In this document: positions 987-28,266 of the stretch, piece by piece | Layout of the letters: each line of letters opens with the position of its first letter | Position numbering within the stretch: the first letter of the stretch is position 1 | Assembly: GCA_016215335.1 (NCBI GenBank) | Contig: JACRKE010000011.1 | Location: 1 to 39,771, forward strand | Length of the DNA stretch: 39,771 bases | Direction: 5' to 3' | Origin: Candidatus Vogelbacteria bacterium | GTDB lineage: Bacteria; Patescibacteriota; Minisyncoccia; Phycocordibacterales; JACRKE01 | Position numbers and translations under genes: made by a program | The notes under the pieces: model-generated | Told to the model about the DNA's origin: nothing | Databases searched by the model: none | The model's input: the letters and a program-made list of their open reading frames with translations, nothing else

Positions 987-3095
987 ATGTACCTGAAGTC
1001 GATTGAACTCTCGGGTTTTAAATCTTTTGCGCGGAAGACTTCGCTAATTTTCAATGCGCCTGTGACTTCTGTGGTGGGTCCGAACGGTTCTGGTAAATCA
1101 AACGTGGCCGAAGCTTTCCGCTGGGTGCTTGGCGAGCAGGCGCTCTCAAACATTCGTGGTAAGCGCGGAGAGGATTTCATATTCAATGGTTCGACCGAAG
1201 CGGCGCGACTTAATCACGCGTCTGTCGCAATCTATTTTGATAATTCGAAGCGTCAATTTGCGGTCGAGAGCGAGGAAATCGTAATTGCGCGCCATGTCTA
1301 TCGCGACGGTACGAATGAGTATTATCTAAATCAATCCAAAGTTCGACTGATGGATATTGTTGAGCTCATGGCGTCAGTCGGACTTGGTAGCTCGAGCCAC
1401 TACATCATTAGTCAGGGTGAGGCCGACAGAATGCTCTCGGTCAATCAAAAAGAGCGCATGAAAATGGTTGAGGACGCGCTTGGACTTACTGTGTTTGAAA
1501 TCAAGAGAAAAGAGGCAGGGCGAAAGTTGGATAAGACGCAAGAAAATCTGAAGCAGGTGGAGGCGCTTCGTAGGGAGATCGTTCCCCATTTGAAATACCT
1601 AAAAAAGCAGGTAGAACAGATCGAGCGAGCAGAGGCCATGAAGTCAGAGCTCAAAGGTTTGTACAGAACATATTTTGCATCGGAGGATGCCTACTTAAAA
1701 CTCGAGCACGGCAAGATTACGGAAGAACTGAAGACAAACAATCATGAGTTAGGAATAGTTGAGAAAGAGATAGAGAAGAATCAGGGTATTGCCGCACCTG
1801 ATAGTGAGAGTAAGAAACAACTTGAGACGCAGTTGCTTGAATCAGAGAGAACTCTCGGAAAGGTGCGAGCTACGAAGGATGAGCTCTCACGAACTATTGG
1901 GAGACTCGAAGGAACTATTGAGTCGGAAGAAAATTCAGGTGAGAGAAGTTGGCAGAAAGCAGAGGAGGGCAAATCGTGTCCTGTGTGCGGGCAACTTGTA
2001 ACAGAGCACTCAAACAAGGAGAAGCTCGAAGCATTATGGTTCGCTCGCGAAGCGAAGCTTCGCGAGCTCAAGACCCAGAAATTGGAAGCAGACAAGATTA
2101 TGCTTGAGGCCGATAGACAGAGTAAGATTTTAACCGAGAGAATTTTTGAAATCAGAAAAAAGATTGCTCTTACAGAAGAGCAGGGAAGGGTCGCTAGTGA
2201 GAAAGTGTACTCATTTCGTGCGAAGAAACAGGAGTTTGTCTCAAACATTTCGCTCCTTAAAATGCGAGAGGAGAAAATCCATATTGAGATTAATGCCTTC
2301 AAACGTGAATGCGGCGAGGCAGCGGTGCTTATCGGTCGCGACGTTCTCGATTACGAGGCGACAACACTTGCCGAGAATGTTCCACGCGAAGTACAGGAAA
2401 CTCGTAAACACAGTATCGAAAGATTAAAGATTAGAATCGAAGAGATTGGCGGAGGACATTCAGATGTACTCAAGGAGTATCAAGAGCTCAATGAGCGTGA
2501 GCAATATCTTGTGAAAGAAATTGCAGATTTGAATTCAGCTATCGAGTCACTCCAGAAACTCATGGCGGATTTAATCACTCAATTGAAGACCCAATTCAAG
2601 ACAGGTTTTGAGAAAATCAATACGCAATTCAACTTTTATTTCAACGTGCTTTTCGGTGGTGGTTCTGCAGAACTTTCAATCATTGCCCTGAAGCCACAGC
2701 TAGGCGAAGATGAACCTGAGTTGGGAGATAAACCAGAGGAGGGAATTGAGATAAGTGTGTCACTGCCTCGCAAAAAGATCCGCGGACTTCAGATGCTTTC
2801 GGGCGGAGAACGAACACTGACCTCACTTGCGTTGCTCTTCGCTGTAACTCAAGTGAATCCACCACCATTTCTAATACTCGACGAGACAGATGCGGCACTC
2901 GACGAAGCGAATTCAAAGAAATATGGCGACATGCTCGAGGGTCTAGCCAAGAAATCCCAACTTGTGATAATCACCCACAACCGAGAGACAATGTCCCACG
3001 CGGGAGTGCTCTATGGTATTACAATGGGCAAAGACGCAGTCTCGCGAGTTCTATCTATAAAGTTCGAAGAAGCGGAACAGATGGCGGCAAGGTAA
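987..3095 (+). CDS. smc: Short SMC-family chromosome segregation ATPase with a central CPVCG zinc-hook motif and no recognisable hinge
   Basis: GFKSF, Walker A GPNGSGKSN, Q-loop IISQG, signature LSGGE, PPPFLILDETDAALD, ITH; coiled coils between; CPVCG at aa 331-335. Confidence 0.88.
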   Translation: MYLKSIELSGFKSFARKTSLIFNAPVTSVVGPNGSGKSNVAEAFRWVLGEQALSNIRGKRGEDFIFNGSTEAARLNHASVAIYFDNSKRQFAVESEEIVIARHVYRDGTNEYYLNQSKVRLMDIVELMASVGLGSSSHYIISQGEADRMLSVNQKERMKMVEDALGLTVFEIKRKEAGRKLDKTQENLKQVEALRREIVPHLKYLKKQVEQIERAEAMKSELKGLYRTYFASEDAYLKLEHGKITEELKTNNHELGIVEKEIEKNQGIAAPDSESKKQLETQLLESERTLGKVRATKDELSRTIGRLEGTIESEENSGERSWQKAEEGKSCPVCGQLVTEHSNKEKLEALWFAREAKLRELKTQKLEADKIMLEADRQSKILTERIFEIRKKIALTEEQGRVASEKVYSFRAKKQEFVSNISLLKMREEKIHIEINAFKRECGEAAVLIGRDVLDYEATTLAENVPREVQETRKHSIERLKIRIEEIGGGHSDVLKEYQELNEREQYLVKEIADLNSAIESLQKLMADLITQLKTQFKTGFEKINTQFNFYFNVLFGGGSAELSIIALKPQLGEDEPELGDKPEEGIEISVSLPRKKIRGLQMLSGGERTLTSLALLFAVTQVNPPPFLILDETDAALDEANSKKYGDMLEGLAKKSQLVIITHNRETMSHAGVLYGITMGKDAVSRVLSIKFEEAEQMAAR
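2043..2067. repeat. Perfect 11-bp hairpin inside smc
   Basis: GCTCGCGAAGC-GAA-GCTTCGCGAGC. Confidence 0.6.
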
Positions 3096-3166: not shown

Positions 3167-3835
3167 ATGGAAATTCTACGCTCCGAGTACATTGTGGAAG
3201 ACGAATACTATCACGTTTACAATCGTGGGACTGATCACCGTGCTATTGTGCAAGACAAGTATGATTCTGATAGATTTATCGATAGTCTAATCGCTTTCAA
3301 CTCAGTGGAACCTATCCAGAGCATTTACTGGAATGAATACGAACGCAATAAGATGGGTTTTGAGAAGCAAGGGAACGTCAATCAAAAAAAATTAGTAGAG
3401 ATAATTTGTTATTGCTTGAACCCTAATCATTACCATTTGATTTTGAAACCTATATCGAAGAATGGCATAAGTGAATTCATGAAAAGGATAGCAGGCTACT
3501 CTAGGTATTTTAACGAGCGCTACAAGAGATCTGGATCATTATTCCAAGGCAAATACAAGGTAAAACATCTAGATTCAAATGATTACCTACTCCATGCCAG
3601 CGCATATGTAAATATTAATTTTAAGGTACATGACATTCATGAACCTGCTTTGAAGTTGGTTCGCTCAAGTTACGATCAATATTTTAGTGACTCGACAGGC
3701 ATTTGCGTGACCGACATTATTTTAGATCAATTTTCGAATACGGCAGAGTATATAAAATTTTGTAATGATTCACTTGAGTTGATGAAACAGCGTAAGGTAG
3801 AGGATAAGGAATTTAAAAAGCTCCTATTAGAATAA
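3167..3835 (+). CDS. REP-associated tyrosine transposase (IS200/IS605-related Y1 HUH, TnpA-REP/RAYT)
   Basis: YYHVYNRG, YCLNPNHYHLIL (HUH), YSRYFNERYKRSGSLFQGKYK, candidate catalytic Tyr in SAYVNIN, RSSY. Confidence 0.9.
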   Translation: MEILRSEYIVEDEYYHVYNRGTDHRAIVQDKYDSDRFIDSLIAFNSVEPIQSIYWNEYERNKMGFEKQGNVNQKKLVEIICYCLNPNHYHLILKPISKNGISEFMKRIAGYSRYFNERYKRSGSLFQGKYKVKHLDSNDYLLHASAYVNINFKVHDIHEPALKLVRSSYDQYFSDSTGICVTDIILDQFSNTAEYIKFCNDSLELMKQRKVEDKEFKKLLLE

Positions 3836-3884: not shown

Positions 3885-3996
3885 GAAGAGATTGGGTGAG
3901 GAACATGGAAATATTTAAGGAGATTTTAGCCGCATACCTGGTTTGGTATACGGCTGGTGAAGGATTCTCTGCCGAACGTTAGCCGGAGTGCATGGC

Positions 3997-4443
3997 CTAA
4001 TCTTCGTCGGGGACCGGCAGGATGTGCTCTATGAATTGCGCGAGGAGGCGCTTGTAGCCTCGCTTTACCGCGTGCATCGAACGATCGCACCTGGGGTCGT
4101 AGGCGCTGATTACGAACGAGCTCTTGTTCGGCTTGGCCACGAATCGAATCTTGTCGGTGAGGCCGATTGATCCAGACACGTCGATGGTGACGATGTAGTG
4201 GTCGATCTCTTTCGAGCGCTGGGGCATCGGGGCAATACGGAGGCTGTACCCGCGATTCGCAACCACATCGATGAAATCGCTCTCCATATCTGTGGCCAGT
4301 TGAACCGAAGTGTGATTCGGTATGGGCTGAAGCCACCATGGTTCCCCATTTAACATGATACTGAGTTGCGAGACGATCTGAACCGCCGTCAGCTCGAGTG
4401 GGGTCAGGTTGGTTTCTCCAACCAGTTGGACCTTTTTCTTCAC
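3997..4443 (-). CDS. Hypothetical protein (ORFan, 148 aa)
   Basis: GTG start preceded by AGGAGG SD; own sigma70 promoter upstream; protein-like composition. Confidence 0.7.
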   Translation of the reverse strand: MKKKVQLVGETNLTPLELTAVQIVSQLSIMLNGEPWWLQPIPNHTSVQLATDMESDFIDVVANRGYSLRIAPMPQRSKEIDHYIVTIDVSGSIGLTDKIRFVAKPNKSSFVISAYDPRCDRSMHAVKRGYKRLLAQFIEHILPVPDED

Positions 4444-4512
4444 GATTCCTCCTGTCTTTGTGGGCCTTAACCACCATATTTACGGCTGGATGACTGTTGC
4501 TTTCTGATTCAA

Positions 4513-4555: not shown

Positions 4556-6478
4556 CTAAACTTCCACAATCTTGTACGTAATTGTTCTGTTTTGGAGGTC
4601 TGTTGCCATAACTTTTACCTTTAGTTTGTCGCCCAGGCGATATTTTTTGCCTTTTTTGCTGCCTACTAGTTGCAGACTCTTTTCGTCATAATTGTAATAA
4701 TCGTCGGTCATTTCGCGCATTCGGATCATGCCCTCACTTGCGGACTCTTTCTCCTGCACGTACATGCCGTACTCTGTAACGCCGGAAATTGTGGCGTCGA
4801 ACACTTTACCTATTCGCTCGCTCATGAATTCAACCTGTTTCATTTTTATTGAATCCCATTCCGCTTCCATCGCTTTACGTTCCATGTCTGAACAGTGCTC
4901 GCATAGTTTCTCAAATTTGCTTTTTGCCGCTTCGCCTACGGGGGCTTTGTGTTCAAGATACGTTTGAAGAAGGCGATGGACCATTACATCCGGATATCGT
5001 CTGATGGGCGATGTAAAATGAGTGTAGTAATCAAAGGCGAGGCCGTAGTGACCTATGTTTTTGGTAGAATATATAGCCTTTGCCATTGAACGCATGACAG
5101 TAGTCGAGATCAGCTGTTCCTCGCGAGTATCTTGAACTTTATCAAGTAGAGCAGAGAGCTGACTTGATTCAACCTGGCCGTCGTGCATTTTGAGCTGGTG
5201 TCCAAACTGCTTCACGAGCGCCTGCAAATTGCCCATCTTTTTAATGTCTGGATAGTCGTGGATTCTGTATACGAAAATGTTGGCCTCGCCTTGATCCTTG
5301 TGTTCAAAAACGTGTTCCGCCACCACTCGGTTTGCAAGTAACATGTATTCCTCGATCATTTTGTTGGTGTCTTGACGAAGTTTCTTGTATACGAAAAGCG
5401 GTTTGCCGTTTTCGTCCAGCTTGAACTTTATCTCATCTGTCTCAAATGCAATTGCACCCTCGGCAAACTTCTTTAGGGCCATTTTTTTGGCCAGCTCATT
5501 CATCGTGTTTAGTTCATCGTAGTAGAGTCCTCTTTTGTTGTCCAAGATCTCTTGAGCTTCTTCGTAAGTGAAGCGCTTGTCAGAGTGGATCACAGTTCGT
5601 CCGAGCCAGTAGTCCACCACGTCGGCTTCAGGGGTGAGTGCTACAACGCAAGAAAAAGTAAGTCTGTCTTTGTCGGCTTCAAGACTGGCAAGATTGTTAG
5701 AGAGTCTCTCCGGAAGCATTGGAATCACTCGATCGACTAAGTAAATCGAAGTCGCGCGATGCTTGGCTTCTTCGTCGAGTGCTGTGTCTTCACGCAGGAA
5801 ATGTGATACGTCAGCAATATGAATTCCAATTTCGTAATTACCGTCCGACTTTTTTTCAAATGAAAGTGCGTCGTCGAAGTCCTTTGCGTTATCAGGGTCA
5901 ATTGTAAAAGTTAGCACCTTTCTGAAGTCTCTTCTTTTAGATAGTTCCTCTTTTGAAATCTCTTCAGGAATTGCCTCGACTTCTTTTTCAATTTCACGAG
6001 GGAATTTGTCGGCTAGGCCCTGCGAACGAAGTATTGCCTTCATTTCCACATTGTTGTCACCTGCTATCCCTAAAACCTCAACTACTTTTCCGGCAGGGAA
6101 CTGTTCGGTTGTGGACCAGTCGAGCATTTTCACGACGACTTTTTCGCCCACTTTTGCATTCATAAGGTCGTTTTGTGCCATAAGAAAACGTACGTGAATT
6201 CGTCTATCATCTGACTTGAGCCAGTAGTGACACTCACTAGTTTCGATTGTTCCGACATACGTCTCAGAAGCACGACTTACAACTCTGATAACAGAGCCCT
6301 CTTGTCTTCGGTTGTAATCTTTAGGCAAAAGCTCAATTGCCACGGTGTCTCTGTGCAGTACATTTTTTAGATTTTCTGGTGTAATGATAACGTCCTCCTC
6401 GAGTTCTTCAGATGTTACGTATCCGACGCCTTTACTATTTATGCTTATCGTTCCCATTATCTCTTTTTGGTCTTTCAT
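4556..6478 (-). CDS. rnr: Ribonuclease R (RNase II/R family)
   Basis: FTIDPDNAKDFDDA catalytic motif, HIADVSH, YTHFTSPIRRYPD, N-terminal CSDs and C-terminal S1. Confidence 0.95.
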   Translation of the reverse strand: MKDQKEIMGTISINSKGVGYVTSEELEEDVIITPENLKNVLHRDTVAIELLPKDYNRRQEGSVIRVVSRASETYVGTIETSECHYWLKSDDRRIHVRFLMAQNDLMNAKVGEKVVVKMLDWSTTEQFPAGKVVEVLGIAGDNNVEMKAILRSQGLADKFPREIEKEVEAIPEEISKEELSKRRDFRKVLTFTIDPDNAKDFDDALSFEKKSDGNYEIGIHIADVSHFLREDTALDEEAKHRATSIYLVDRVIPMLPERLSNNLASLEADKDRLTFSCVVALTPEADVVDYWLGRTVIHSDKRFTYEEAQEILDNKRGLYYDELNTMNELAKKMALKKFAEGAIAFETDEIKFKLDENGKPLFVYKKLRQDTNKMIEEYMLLANRVVAEHVFEHKDQGEANIFVYRIHDYPDIKKMGNLQALVKQFGHQLKMHDGQVESSQLSALLDKVQDTREEQLISTTVMRSMAKAIYSTKNIGHYGLAFDYYTHFTSPIRRYPDVMVHRLLQTYLEHKAPVGEAAKSKFEKLCEHCSDMERKAMEAEWDSIKMKQVEFMSERIGKVFDATISGVTEYGMYVQEKESASEGMIRMREMTDDYYNYDEKSLQLVGSKKGKKYRLGDKLKVKVMATDLQNRTITYKIVEV

Positions 6479-6559: not shown

Positions 6560-6889
6560 CTAGTTGTGTACAATCGGCGTCGTGCAAGGTAGCTTCCAGC
6601 TTGATGCTTTATCCTGATACGCTGGACTCTCGAAGTTGCGCCGAAATGCTACGAGCTGTGGGTTTGCTTTGATATCGTCGACGAGTGATTCATCGACTTG
6701 CACCCACGAACTTTTGGAGAACTTCTTGAACTTGCGTTCGCCTTTCAGTTTGACATAGGGGATGACGTAGTAGACTCCTGATTCCTCACAGAGCTTATAC
6801 CTGTGCTCATCTCCCTTTGACCAAAACACATCAATTACAACAGCAAACTGCTCGTCTGCCATCAGTTTTGACGTCCTTTCGCGGATCAT
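6560..6889 (-). CDS. Hypothetical protein (109 aa)
   Basis: Isolated ORF with GGAG upstream and a hairpin downstream; no recognisable motif. Confidence 0.6.
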   Translation of the reverse strand: MIRERTSKLMADEQFAVVIDVFWSKGDEHRYKLCEESGVYYVIPYVKLKGERKFKKFSKSSWVQVDESLVDDIKANPQLVAFRRNFESPAYQDKASSWKLPCTTPIVHN

Positions 6890-6980: not shown

Positions 6981-7322
6981 ATGTTAATGATAAGATTACA
7001 GCGCGTCGGACGAGCAAATGATCCATCTTTCCGCGTGGTTTTAACCGAAAAAAGAAACGCTACAAAGAGTGGTAAATTCTTGGAAGTTTTGGGGTCTTAC
7101 AATTCCCGCGGAGGTAAGGCGGTTCTAAACAAAGAGCGTGTCACTAAATGGCTCAAAGACGGAGTGCAGCTTTCAGATACTGCCAGAAATATTTTGATAA
7201 ATCATAAACTTATCAAAGGGGATAAAGTTAAGTTCATAGGGAAGAACAAGACGAAAGAGGTAGTAGCTGAAGTTAAAGCTCAAGAGACTAAAGCTCCAGA
7301 AGCCGCTACTGCACAGGTTTAG
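6981..7322 (+). CDS. rpsP: 30S ribosomal protein S16
   Basis: MLMIRLQRVGR...FRVV...GKFLEVLGSYN...WLKDGVQLSDT, typical bS16. Confidence 0.95.
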   Translation: MLMIRLQRVGRANDPSFRVVLTEKRNATKSGKFLEVLGSYNSRGGKAVLNKERVTKWLKDGVQLSDTARNILINHKLIKGDKVKFIGKNKTKEVVAEVKAQETKAPEAATAQV

Positions 7323-25651: not shown

Positions 25652-26377
25652 TCAGCCGAGCAAGGTTGAAACCAGTAAAATGAAAAGCACTCCGACCAAT
25701 GTAGCGTAAATTGTTTTGTGCGAAGAACCGTGACTATGCGCTTCTGGCAGAATGTCAGAAGCGCCTATGTACATAAGAAAACCTGCAAAAAACCCAAGAT
25801 ATATGAGTAAATAATCGGAGGACAAGGTGAAAAAGAAGGTAGACAGTCCACCGAGCAATGGAGCGCAAGCATGAAATGTGAGGAACTTGATCGCGCGTTC
25901 TTTTGTGTTTTTATGTGCAAGCATTAATGCCACGTTATTCAATCCATCACTAAACGCGTGGGCAATCACCGCAAGCGCAACCGCAAGACCAACTTCCCTC
26001 GAAATCTGGAAACCAAGCCCGATTCCAAGCCCGTCAAGAAAGGAGTGTGCTGAAAGCGCGAGAGCCGAGAGCATCCCGACAGATGGGTGTTTGTGTTCGC
26101 CATACTCTTCTTCGTGCGAATGGTGGATAAGAAGTAGTTTCTCCGCAATATGGAAAACAAGAAAGCCTGCCACAAAAGCGTACATGACATAAGTGATCTC
26201 TCCGACACCTGATTCGAGAATTTCGAAAATCTCAGGAAATATGTCGAATGCTACTATAGCGAGTAGTACCCCGGCAGTAAAACCAAGTACAATGTGCATC
26301 TTGTCTTTGAACTTAAGACCAAACAAGCCTCCAACCAGCGTTGAGACAAAAGTCAGCAGAATCGATATTATAGCCAT
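25652..26377 (-). CDS. ZIP-family (ZupT-like) metal transporter
   Basis: GFTAGVLL, His-rich loop HHSHEEEYGEHKH, HSFLDG, HAFSDG, DILPEAH; start set to ATG 26377, 7 nt after TATACT. Confidence 0.88.
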   Translation of the reverse strand: MAIISILLTFVSTLVGGLFGLKFKDKMHIVLGFTAGVLLAIVAFDIFPEIFEILESGVGEITYVMYAFVAGFLVFHIAEKLLLIHHSHEEEYGEHKHPSVGMLSALALSAHSFLDGLGIGLGFQISREVGLAVALAVIAHAFSDGLNNVALMLAHKNTKERAIKFLTFHACAPLLGGLSTFFFTLSSDYLLIYLGFFAGFLMYIGASDILPEAHSHGSSHKTIYATLVGVLFILLVSTLLG

Positions 26378-26473
26378 AATATTGAGTATATGGTTTAGGG
26401 AGAGTTCAGGCAAGTATAAGCGGAAGATACAGAGAAAGATCGGCTAGATCAAAAGTCGCCCAAAAAATCAACT

Positions 26474-27007
26474 TTAGTATGGGAATTTCCTCTTGTACTT
26501 TTCGTAAGCTACCAAAAATTGCGGGCTGAATTGGTCTGGATCAATCTTAAGAAGCGTTTCAAGTTCAACCCTTTTGATTTTTTTAATAGTGGAAAGCTGT
26601 TCGGTGTTTATATTCCAATTGTTATCATAAAGACAGTAGAACACGTTCATCAGTCTCTTTGTGCCGTCTTTTAAAGATTCGAACTCTCTGCCGAGCAAGT
26701 ATAGTTTGGAAGGATGTATGCACATATCATGCAATAGCGCCCGCTCAGCCGCTTTACTCGGATCTTCATTCTGCCATACAAGAGAAACGGCTGGCACTCC
26801 CATTTTGCCCTTATAAATCTTTTTTGAGAGCTTGCTTTCGGTAAGTGTGGCAAGAAGCATTTCGCGATTCTGAGTAAATACGAAAACGAAGGCATTTTCC
26901 AGGTAATCCTTGCGTCTATCAACTTCATTCCATACCTTGGTCTCGACGGGTTTGCCGTGTTCGTCCAATATATCGACCTTGTAACTATGTGATGAGCTGT
27001 TAATCAT
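26474..27007 (-). CDS. NUDIX-fold / IPP-isomerase-like protein with a degenerate Nudix box
   Basis: VDILDEHG, AFVFVF, NEDPSKAAERAL; catalytic Glu residues look eroded; ATG 27007 lies 7 nt after TATACT. Confidence 0.55.
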   Translation of the reverse strand: MINSSSHSYKVDILDEHGKPVETKVWNEVDRRKDYLENAFVFVFTQNREMLLATLTESKLSKKIYKGKMGVPAVSLVWQNEDPSKAAERALLHDMCIHPSKLYLLGREFESLKDGTKRLMNVFYCLYDNNWNINTEQLSTIKKIKRVELETLLKIDPDQFSPQFLVAYEKYKRKFPY

Positions 27008-27096
27008 GCGAAATAAGTATAACCCAGACACGTTTTTCTACAAGTGCGAAGACACCGGAGCACTACTTAGTCAAGTATGCCCGCAGCCGCTTCTTA

Positions 27097-28266
27097 CTAG
27101 AGCAGATTTAGCAGTTCTTGGGCCATTACTTTCATCTCATTGGTTTTCATCGCGAATATTTGTACTTCGGATCCCTCGTCGCCAATCTCGCCGCTACCGC
27201 TTGTCCGAGTACTATTTTTCGCATCATCAAGTCTGATTCCAAATGAATTCATGTTCAGACAGATTCTGTTTCGCAAATTCGCCGATCGTTCTCCTACTGT
27301 TCCGGTAAAGACTAGGGCGTCTATTCCGTCTAATGTCGTAGCCATGCTTCCTATCATTTTTTTTATTCTATATACATAGAGTTCGAGGGCCGATTTCGCG
27401 TTTTTGTTTCCTTCCTTTTCCGCTTTAAGCAGATCTCTCGGGTCTTCGGATATGCCGCTTAGGCCAAGTAGCCCGCAGCCACGATTCAGAAGCGTTTCCA
27501 CGAGCGATATGGGCGAATCTGTTTTTTCTATGAGAGTGGAAACCAAAATAGGATCAATGTCTCCAGAACGCGTGGCCATCATAACACCTTCAAGCGGGGA
27601 GAATCCCATGGATGTATCTACAGTTTTGCCGTCTTTAAAAGACATAACACTTATTCCGCCTCCTATATGGCAGATTATCAGCTTTGATGGTAATTTTCGG
27701 CACAATCGGTCAAGCTCGGAAACAATATATTCCGCAGACAGTCCGTGATAGCCGAACCTTTCGGCCTCGAGGTTTTCGCGCATTTGGCGCGGAATGGCGT
27801 AGAGCCTCGACACCAAGGGCCTCTCCCTGTGAAAAGCGCTGTCCGAGAGTGCGTATATCGGCACATCCGGCAACGTTTCTTTGAACATTTTTATTTCTCC
27901 GAGTGAGGCTTCTATGTGGAGAGGAGAGATCGCGAGTTTCTCGTTTAGGTTCGTCATAAAAGTTTCGTCTATTTTACGATGGGTTGCAAAAAAATGCCCG
28001 GGAGCAACGATCCTCACTCCAATGGCCGCGAGCATCGTCGGGTCAAACTCGCACTCTTTCTTTATAGTCTTGATCAAATATTCGGCGCATTTCCTGAACT
28101 GTTCTTCGGTGACATTTTCTTCGTAAACTTTCGTCCCTTTTTCTACGGTTGAAATATATGAGCCTTTATTTTTTTCCAAATGAAGCGAAAGGATCTGTTC
28201 AGAGTCCTTATAAAGCGCGTATTTCCTGGATTCACTCCCGGGGTTGGATAAGATTATATATGCCAT
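27097..28266 (-). CDS. ackA: Acetate kinase
   Basis: NPGSESRK, SPLH, DSAFH, FGYHGLS, CHIGGG, DTSMGFSPLEG, TRSGD, FTGTVGE, TNE; overlaps the xfp end. Confidence 0.92.
   Translation of the reverse strand: MAYIILSNPGSESRKYALYKDSEQILSLHLEKNKGSYISTVEKGTKVYEENVTEEQFRKCAEYLIKTIKKECEFDPTMLAAIGVRIVAPGHFFATHRKIDETFMTNLNEKLAISPLHIEASLGEIKMFKETLPDVPIYALSDSAFHRERPLVSRLYAIPRQMRENLEAERFGYHGLSAEYIVSELDRLCRKLPSKLIICHIGGGISVMSFKDGKTVDTSMGFSPLEGVMMATRSGDIDPILVSTLIEKTDSPISLVETLLNRGCGLLGLSGISEDPRDLLKAEKEGNKNAKSALELYVYRIKKMIGSMATTLDGIDALVFTGTVGERSANLRNRICLNMNSFGIRLDDAKNSTRTSGSGEIGDEGSEVQIFAMKTNEMKVMAQELLNLL

Follow-up and report, generated by a model that had tools for sequence, protein, structure and literature searches.

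How does an Smc protein of only 702 amino acids (aa) hold its two chains together if it carries no hinge? The question is raised by a gene in the 39,771-nt stretch of DNA analysed here ("the window" below), contig JACRKE010000011.1 of the Candidatus Vogelbacteria assembly GCA_016215335.1, in which the open reading frame (ORF) 987-3095 on the forward strand starts with ATG, continues without an internal stop and encodes the protein that we call P0001. Reviews characterize SMC proteins by the combination of a hinge with a kleisin, and Rad50 by that of a zinc hook with a nuclease partner (PMC10586767). An earlier note on this DNA proposed that the protein mixes the two plans, with an Smc-type head, no hinge, and a CxxC motif at the point where the coiled coil should fold back. 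Our analysis leads to the following reading, to which we assign a rough probability of 0.7: P0001 is the only Smc of the organism and provides the ATPase to an Smc-ScpAB condensin, in a hinge-less and short-armed form closed by a zinc hook.

The translation contains all the motifs that had been reported, as well as the length of 702 aa and the CPVCG in the middle of the protein: GFKSF at residues 10-14, Walker A GPNGSGKS at 31-38, LSGGE at 604-608, PPPFLILDETDAALD at residues 625-639, and CPVCG at residues 331-335 (nt 1977-1991), 47% along a chain with three cysteines in total. We assigned the family of the head from the scores of family models, from matches to sequences in the Protein Data Bank (PDB), and from the ranking of folds by Foldseek. 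The head is of the Smc type. The prokaryotic Smc model TIGR02168 (SMC_prok_B) scored 540.1 bits (E 1.1e-161), Pfam SMC_N matched with E 1.8e-66, the closest PDB sequences are bacterial Smc heads (E 3e-90; Rad50 heads reach E 2e-10), and Foldseek searches with the model of P0001 placed Smc, cohesin and condensin heads on top, with the first Rad50 entry at rank 28. The Rad50 models NF002572 and NF003034 scored 65.3 and 54.9 bits (cut-offs 1087 and 700), and the models for ASRP (NF045487, 59.5 bits, cut-off 300) and RecN (TIGR00634, 37.6 bits, cut-off 407.85) also stayed below their thresholds. These results bear out the earlier assignment of the head to Smc rather than to Rad50/SbcC or RecN.

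The region between the two halves of the head contains no detectable hinge. A Pfam scan found no match to SMC_hinge (PF06470) in P0001, nor did the same search, which was positive in 10 of 14 control genomes, find one anywhere in the organism's own genome; that assembly comprises 836,512 bases in 46 contigs and is an estimated 91.4% complete, which limits every gene absence reported for it here, as an incomplete genome cannot prove absence. In the AlphaFold2 (AF2) monomer built on 41 homologues (mean predicted local distance difference test, pLDDT, 81.3; predicted template modelling score 0.55), helices 168-325 and 344-556 form a long antiparallel coiled coil and are joined by the loop 326-343, with no globular domain between them; at 18 residues, this loop is too small for a hinge. 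The ascending strand measures 158 residues and the descending one ~190, including ~20 non-helical residues, i.e. roughly half of the arm of Bacillus subtilis Smc, for which 344 aa have been reported (PMC5344682). The same study lists 238, 341 and 515 aa as the preferred arm lengths of prokaryotic Smc and 163 and 423 aa as possible minor modes, and by our own estimate the modelled arm of P0001 would lie close to the mode of 163 aa. Burmann et al. located the hinge by alignment (PMC5344682), and hinge-less proteins would therefore have gone unmeasured. Absence of the hinge, as asserted earlier, is thus confirmed by profile searches of the protein and the genome and by a model with nothing but a loop at the apex. 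The accompanying expectation for the domain scan held for SMC_N and for the missing SMC_hinge and failed for Rad50_zn_hook, which stayed below its cut-off. That P0001 is the hinge-less, short Smc of this organism we regard as nearly certain.

The apical cysteine pair is conserved among close relatives, as the earlier note had presupposed. The 120 best database matches, with source labels that include Candidatus Vogelbacteria, Taylorbacteria and Paceibacterota, are all 689-782 aa long and show no hinge among their precomputed Pfam domains. A CxxC at 45-48% of the length is present in all 37 best matches and in 41 of the 120 overall, the other 79 being without it; among the best 150 representatives of clusters at 50% identity the motif occurs in 7 and is absent from 143. 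We collected 46 hook-type proteins of 663-771 aa; aligned hook relatives are 47-64% identical to P0001. Two cysteines were counted in 33 of these proteins, three in 9, four in 3 and five in 1; the corresponding counts for 222 hook-less relatives are none in 123, one in 64, two in 26, three in 5, four in 3 and five in 1. The motif cysteines are therefore the only ones in 33 of the 46 hook-type proteins, and cysteine is otherwise avoided in the family. Directly behind the second cysteine, 40 of the 46 have GQ, 4 have AQ, 1 has KQ and 1 has NQ, with GS or GN in genomes of one further family. Every row of the 41-row alignment of hook relatives (A1) has Q336, and at least 90% of the rows retain G335, neither residue having been a criterion for selection, and no conserved histidine follows the CxxC in the aligned rows. 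A conserved half of a zinc site at the turn of a coiled coil looks like a hook of the Rad50 type, and we think that the pair probably is a zinc hook that holds the dimer.

A prediction of the dimer with zinc, which had been suggested earlier as a check, is consistent with this function. Two copies of residues 250-415 were submitted with the 41-row alignment and one Zn, and the dimer score was 0.57 in each of three runs, compared with 0.01 for the best of three controls; among proteins of solved structure, 20 of 30 same-chain pairs and 1 of 23 single chains reach that mark. At least 94% of the contacts are shared between the runs, the partner pLDDT is at least 78, and the confident interface covers residues 294-317, 330-350 and 397-412, the contacts of lowest predicted error being 305:305, 306:305, 302:302, 333:333 and 334:334. 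The predicted arrangement, which we interpret as a rod of two adjacent arms beneath a common hook, supports the hook. The first three of these contacts fall into the segment RxxGRLEG, in which R302 and G305 are invariant in A1; G305 is kept in 46 of 47 hook rows and in 62 of 65 and 25 of 26 non-hook rows. The whole segment is nearly invariant in the hook-type and hook-less Smc proteins of the order, and across the phylum positions 305 and 309 are repeatedly occupied by small residues.

The genome supplies the partners of an Smc and not those of a Rad50. We found ScpA (254 aa, 79.8 bits) and ScpB (184 aa, 130.1 bits) encoded by overlapping ORFs on one contig (C7), and ParB (159 bits), and detected no second Smc with TIGR02168. 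Neither SbcD (TIGR00619) nor SbcC (TIGR00618) gave a match in this genome, and RecN gave only a weak model match inside the smc ORF itself. The search for scpA, scpB and sbcD proposed in the earlier note therefore returned the first two and not the third, and in five other genomes with a hook-type Smc the outcome was the same for ScpA (found in 5/5) and SbcD (0/5). The genes next to smc do not form a defence or repair context. The presence of a single Smc together with ScpA, ScpB and ParB, the failure to find SbcD and SbcC, and the nature of the neighbours identify P0001 as the condensin ATPase of this organism.

Several observations weigh against a hook-closed condensin. The score of P0001 with TIGR02168 falls below the curated cut-off of 567.35, albeit by little, because the match consists of two stretches (the second of which, profile positions 929-1180, corresponds to nt 2256-3062) and leaves out profile positions ~447-928. 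Hook profiles recognize the apex poorly: Pfam Rad50_zn_hook (PF04423) matches residues 325-347 with E 0.034 and 14.4 bits, below its cut-off of 24.3, and is not among the top 25 Pfam families by member matches across 41 hook members, while the match of the Pyrococcus Rad50 hook chain 1l8d to the 80-residue apex in a phmmer search of the PDB is not significant (E 0.27) and is equalled by those of a RING-finger E3 ligase (RLIM) and of a chain of transcription factor E. The rows of A1 and the 46 hook relatives were chosen for their CxxC, which makes the invariance of C331 and C334 a matter of construction; the counts of cysteines and the GQ, in contrast, do carry weight. The strongest contacts in the dimer lie in RxxGRLEG and not in the hook; moreover, the predictor may recall solved Rad50 hooks, zinc is unscored, and the calibration was made without ligand or user-supplied alignment. 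Finally, RxxGRLEG is conserved in hook-less relatives too, and its conservation suggests that the arms may dimerize without a hook.

The last point leads to the main rival of dimerization by the hook, in which the protein is likewise a condensin Smc whose chains would be held by arm contacts around RxxGRLEG, with the cysteines accessory: the CxxC would merely make the turn more rigid, hold a metal that adds stability or senses redox state, or be joined in a disulfide. We consider this unlikely, at roughly one chance in six by our judgement of the evidence, which includes, in its favour, the lowest-error contacts at 305:305, 306:305 and 302:302 rather than at the cysteines, the equal conservation of RxxGRLEG with and without the hook, and the fact that hook-less relatives manage with a short helical insert that is often free of cysteine. 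An accessory role is, however, difficult to reconcile with the chemistry of the motif: a tetrahedral zinc site needs more ligands than the two cysteines of a single chain provide, further cysteines are missing from 33 of the 46 hook-type proteins, and the aligned rows offer no conserved histidine after the motif. It also leaves aside that the predicted interface includes residues 330-336, with 333:333 and 334:334 among its lowest-error contacts, and that the hook loop sits where relatives have ~30-35 extra residues, which suggests that one apex device replaces the other.

A half zinc site exposed at an apex could also contact a different protein, either by a heterotypic zinc contact or by docking a partner at the tip of the arm. 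Apart from the exposure itself we found no direct support for such a partner, and the upstream CYTH protein and the downstream IS200-like transposase do not suggest one. Bacterial Smc proteins are homodimers, and the prediction for the homodimer of P0001 passed its controls with a symmetric interface. A heterotypic partner therefore appears quite improbable.

Still less credible is that P0001 is a hook-bearing SMC-like ATPase of repair or defence (of the Rad50/SbcC, Lamassu LmuB or MADS mad3 kind) and not a condensin. The PADLOC models mad3 and LmuB do match, with 188.7 bits and, over residues 1-666, 94.5 bits, and LmuB proteins are described as ~650 aa long, many with a CPxCG-like hook (PMC10586767). 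The score of TIGR02168 is, however, far higher (540 bits), P0001 is the only Smc found in a genome that retains ScpA and ScpB and in which SbcD was not found, and its neighbours are not defence genes. In addition, the glutamate of Walker B is intact, whereas LmuB generally has glutamine according to PMC10586767, and orthologues occur in 40 of 41 genomes of the order, as expected of a housekeeping gene. We rejected Lamassu LmuB as a candidate on the same grounds (94.5 vs 540 bits, the intact glutamate, and CYTH and IS200-like neighbours; no search by name was made for models of LmuA and LmuC). An artefact of assembly or gene calling, for which we found no support, can be dismissed for practical purposes, given the continuous stop-free frame, the length of 689-782 aa of all 120 listed homologues from many contigs and sources, the constant length of the flanks of the apex across 187 aligned Smc proteins of the phylum, and the recurrence of the 663-771-aa hook architecture on many independent contigs of several sources (15 of 30 related loci read). 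None of the four outcomes that the earlier note had named as contrary to its proposal (a head grouping with SbcC/Rad50, a detectable hinge, a CxxC missing from close homologues, a length due to an assembly deletion) was observed.

With zinc binding, dimerization by the hook, the geometry of the rod and the function in chromosome segregation all being inferred, the hook-closed Smc could work as follows. Each chain would fold back on itself as an antiparallel coiled coil of ~160-190 residues per strand, about half of the 344 in B. subtilis, at an 18-residue loop carrying CPVCGQ. Two such loops would meet, and C331 and C334 of each chain would together bind one Zn2+, as in the zinc hook of Rad50, in a site that would keep the dimer permanently joined at its apex. 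Below the hook the arms would form a side-by-side rod with RxxGRLEG (302-309) on the two-fold axis, and the heads would engage and disengage with ATP while ScpA and ScpB close the ring at the heads. The complex would then act on the chromosome like an ordinary Smc-ScpAB, probably loaded via ParB.

We analyzed the distribution of the two features separately. In a sample of 41 genomes of the order, 40 contain a short Smc (whole-gene frames of 689-811 aa), and among the 30 loci returned, one of them the window's own, CxxC occurs only in the window's genome and in one other genome of its family (G002). A third member of the family (G001) encodes a 759-aa Smc without CxxC (P0207). A hook-type query against an order sample of 401 genomes gave 51 strong matches; we read 30 of these 51 loci, and the 15 that carry a CxxC at the midpoint span five families (f1, f203, f237, f193 and f41). 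Forty Smc genes from 40 other families of Patescibacteria (710-1059 aa) contain no CxxC of any kind. Hook-less relatives carry an insert at the apex where the hook loop sits, which in the monomer model of P0207 (residues 324-386) is predicted with low confidence as a loop and two short helices and shows no hinge fold. Most short Smc proteins of the order (e.g. L020, i.e. the locus of G001, L009-L036, and proteins P0038-P0120) lack the cysteine pair and have an insert that makes the apex ~30-35 residues longer overall than in the hook form.

In an even sample of 401 Patescibacteria genomes, with Smc called at E <= 1e-30 to TIGR02168, 157 genomes have an Smc match. PF06470 was found in 11 of the 401, over its cut-off in 10, and all 11 are among the 157; they belong to families f74 and f146, plus one weak match. 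No Pfam hinge match was obtained for the remaining 146 of the 157 Smc-bearing genomes, and a direct Pfam scan of eight hinge-negative Smc proteins of 826-1059 aa detected no hinge, with the control L038 positive at 421-537; even Smc proteins as long as 985-1059 aa gave no sign of one. We also examined a cryptic hinge in the mid-size class (830-900 aa) and rejected it: a profile comparison of this class with the hinge-bearing class scored 97%, but the alignment is confined to the coiled-coil flanks, the hinge core being gapped; the hook, short hook-less and long classes scored 7-13%. These negatives come from profile searches, and a very divergent hinge-like fold may exist in other Smc proteins of Patescibacteria. 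The idea that the architecture is typical of reduced Candidate Phyla Radiation (CPR) genomes is thus borne out in one part, as short hinge-less Smc proteins are common in the phylum sample, and not in the other: the zinc hook is a minority apex, found in 41 of the 120 best matches, in 7 of the 150 best cluster representatives, in none of 40 Smc genes from 40 other families, and in five families of one order. In the same sample, 244 of the 401 genomes gave no TIGR02168 match at E <= 1e-30, including the whole of families f58 (0/13), f66 (0/13) and f63 (0/10), in which Smc is either missing or very divergent. Smc matches of two other genomes contain in-frame stops (two TGA in G309 and one TAG in G485), which could reflect a different genetic code, damage to the gene or an error in the sequencing.

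A census of 187 Smc proteins, aligned with MAFFT and numbered after P0001, locates the variation in length (the counts depend on the alignment). For the hook type the medians are 309 residues before position 309, 93 between 309 and 401, and 311 after 401. The corresponding values are 308, 123 and 313 in one row set of short hook-less proteins and 308, 128 and 318.5 in the other, 309, 250 and 308.5 in other families of the phylum, and 314, 389 and 316 in nine hinge-bearing rows. The proteins differ in length only within the stretch 309-401, the most compact form being that with the hook, and the half of both arm strands proximal to the head is fixed in length, hinge-bearing forms included.

Trees of the head alone give five changes of the hook state for 187 rows (FastTree) and six for 60 rows (IQ-TREE, quick mode), of which the well-supported branches force at least two. 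A single hook clade was not rejected by the approximately unbiased (AU) test (p 0.554), and the constrained tree has a slightly higher likelihood. From these trees we left out a duplicate of the window (L007), a fragment (L030), a row with masked residues (L046) and one at a contig end (L017), and hook-less proteins were randomly dropped (59/79 in the 120-match set and 98/143 in the set of cluster representatives). The hook clade of the window adjoins the hook-less P0207 of G001 in the head-only trees. One origin, several origins or transfer between relatives are all possible on this phylogeny; it is firm that hook and helical insert alternate within one family (f1).

Comparison with known systems places P0001 nearest to bacterial Smc-ScpAB of the B. 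subtilis type (TIGR02168), with which it shares a head with all ATPase motifs, an antiparallel coiled coil that is interrupted close to the head, and ScpA, ScpB and ParB encoded in the genome; it differs in having no hinge, arms of about half the length, 702 aa versus a model of 1181 positions, an apex made of an 18-residue CxxC loop, and a score just under the curated cut-off. Hook-less short Smc proteins such as P0207 share the head, the arm length up to 309 and from 401, and RxxGRLEG, but have an insert of ~60 residues in place of the CxxC loop and usually no cysteine. Rad50/SbcC (PF04423, 1L8D) likewise has its CxxC where an antiparallel coiled coil turns back, and CPVCG followed by a polar and an aliphatic residue aligns with 1l8d, but the head of P0001 scores 65 bits against a cut-off of 1087, Mre11/SbcD was not found, and the hook model stays below its cut-off. 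Hooks have also been described in archaeal ASRP/ClsN/Sph (PMC9389158) and in Lamassu LmuB (PMC10586767), which are similar in size (~600-700 aa), short coiled coils and apical zinc-hook motif; they are nonetheless separate families without ScpAB, for which P0001 scores 59.5 (ASRP) and 94.5 bits (LmuB), far less than for Smc. A further precedent is man-made: B. subtilis Smc(Zh), which carries the zinc hook of Pyrococcus furiosus Rad50 instead of its hinge, supports normal growth (Burmann et al. 2017, PMC5344682), which means that an Smc-plus-hook architecture is viable. Both proteins combine an Smc head with an arm closed by a zinc hook (putative in P0001), but Smc(Zh) has a transplanted archaeal hook and nearly full arms, whereas P0001 is natural, with its own motif of the CxxC[GA]Q type and much shorter arms. 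The reverse exchange has been made as well, as fission-yeast Rad50 works with a MukB hinge (PMC6969161). In a literature search that covered few subscription papers or supplements we found no report of a natural hook-bearing Smc, or of a hinge-less Smc in these bacteria, and the only exchanges of hinge and hook that it yielded are engineered ones (PMC5344682 and PMC6969161).

Table 1. Features of the smc gene in the window and the observations on which each is based.
Feature	Position	Strand	Basis
smc gene, hinge-less 702-aa Smc with apical CxxC	987..3095	+	ORF, translation, TIGR02168 540.1 bits, PDB Smc heads E 3e-90
ABC ATPase head, N-terminal half, aa 1-167	987..1487	+	AF2 secondary structure; residues 1-209 align with Smc heads 5xg3/3zgx
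Walker A GPNGSGKS, aa 31-38	1077..1100	+	sequence; invariant in 41/41 aligned homologues
Ascending arm helix, aa 168-325, break 270-272	1488..1961	+	AF2 helices 168-269 and 273-325
RxxGRLEG arm segment, aa 302-309, predicted on dimer axis	1890..1913	+	conservation, predicted inter-chain contacts
Apex loop in place of the hinge, aa 326-343	1962..2015	+	AF2 non-helical, low monomer confidence; no PF06470 match
Putative zinc-hook motif CPVCGQ, aa 331-336	1977..1994	+	sequence, conservation, predicted contacts 333:333 and 334:334, weak 1l8d alignment
Descending arm strand, aa 344-536	2016..2594	+	AF2 helices 344-449, 467-487 and 492-556; head boundary ~536 is an estimate
Break in descending helix, aa 450-491, possibly the Smc joint	2334..2459	+	AF2 breaks 450-466 and 488-491; Foldseek best match 5xei
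ATPase head, C-terminal half, aa 537-702	2595..3092	+	residues 505-698 align with 5h66_B, E 7e-36
ABC signature LSGGE, aa 604-608	2796..2810	+	sequence; invariant in A1
Walker B FLILDE, aa 628-633, catalytic glutamate kept	2868..2885	+	sequence; D632 and E633 invariant in A1

The break near the head possibly corresponds to the joint of Smc proteins, as the best structural match to the model, 5xei, is an Smc head with coiled coil and joint. Upstream of smc lies a gene for a CYTH-domain protein (311-871, +), and directly downstream a 222-aa ORF (3167-3835, +) for an IS200-like Y1 transposase (PF01797, E 1.3e-9), followed by a gene for an RNase R-like protein with RNB, CSD2 and S1 domains (4556-6478, -) and the gene for ribosomal protein S16 (6981-7322, +). 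The ORFs 3926-4477 (-) and 6560-6889 (-) had no Pfam match, and ARAGORN detected no tRNA or tmRNA genes in the 39.8-kb window (1-39771). Elsewhere in the genome (G000), one weak extra match to TIGR02168 was rejected as a second Smc, as it belongs to an M23 peptidase of 431 aa whose N-terminal part is a coiled coil. The gene for this peptidase is located on contig C7 at 26275-27570 (-), positions 970-2265 of locus L003, ~7 kb from scpAB.

P0001 would work in the manner of Smc-ScpAB; of the defining features of the family it lacks one, the hinge, and its apex follows the logic of Rad50. As a generalization to the phylum, which we offer tentatively and at somewhat less than even odds, Smc-ScpAB of Patescibacteria may have given up the hinge and kept fixed half-arms proximal to the head, with small, interchangeable devices at the apex: at least five families would use a zinc hook, and most others a short helical insert. 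If a natural hook-closed Smc keeps ScpAB, then evolution has made the same swap as the engineers, and this would favour the idea that nothing more is required of the apex than to keep two arms joined. If these hinge-less complexes still organize chromosomes, nature would be able to do without the hinge fold and its proposed roles in the handling of DNA. Smc could then function with an arm of ~160 residues, and these bacteria would be a source of minimal SMC motors of natural origin for structural and single-molecule studies. The Smc-ScpAB of 702 + 254 + 184 aa is compact and suits structural work. Half-length arms near the minor mode of 163 aa would provide a natural test of the length rule of Burmann et al., and the occurrence of hook and helical insert in close relatives is a ready-made comparison of what an apex may do.

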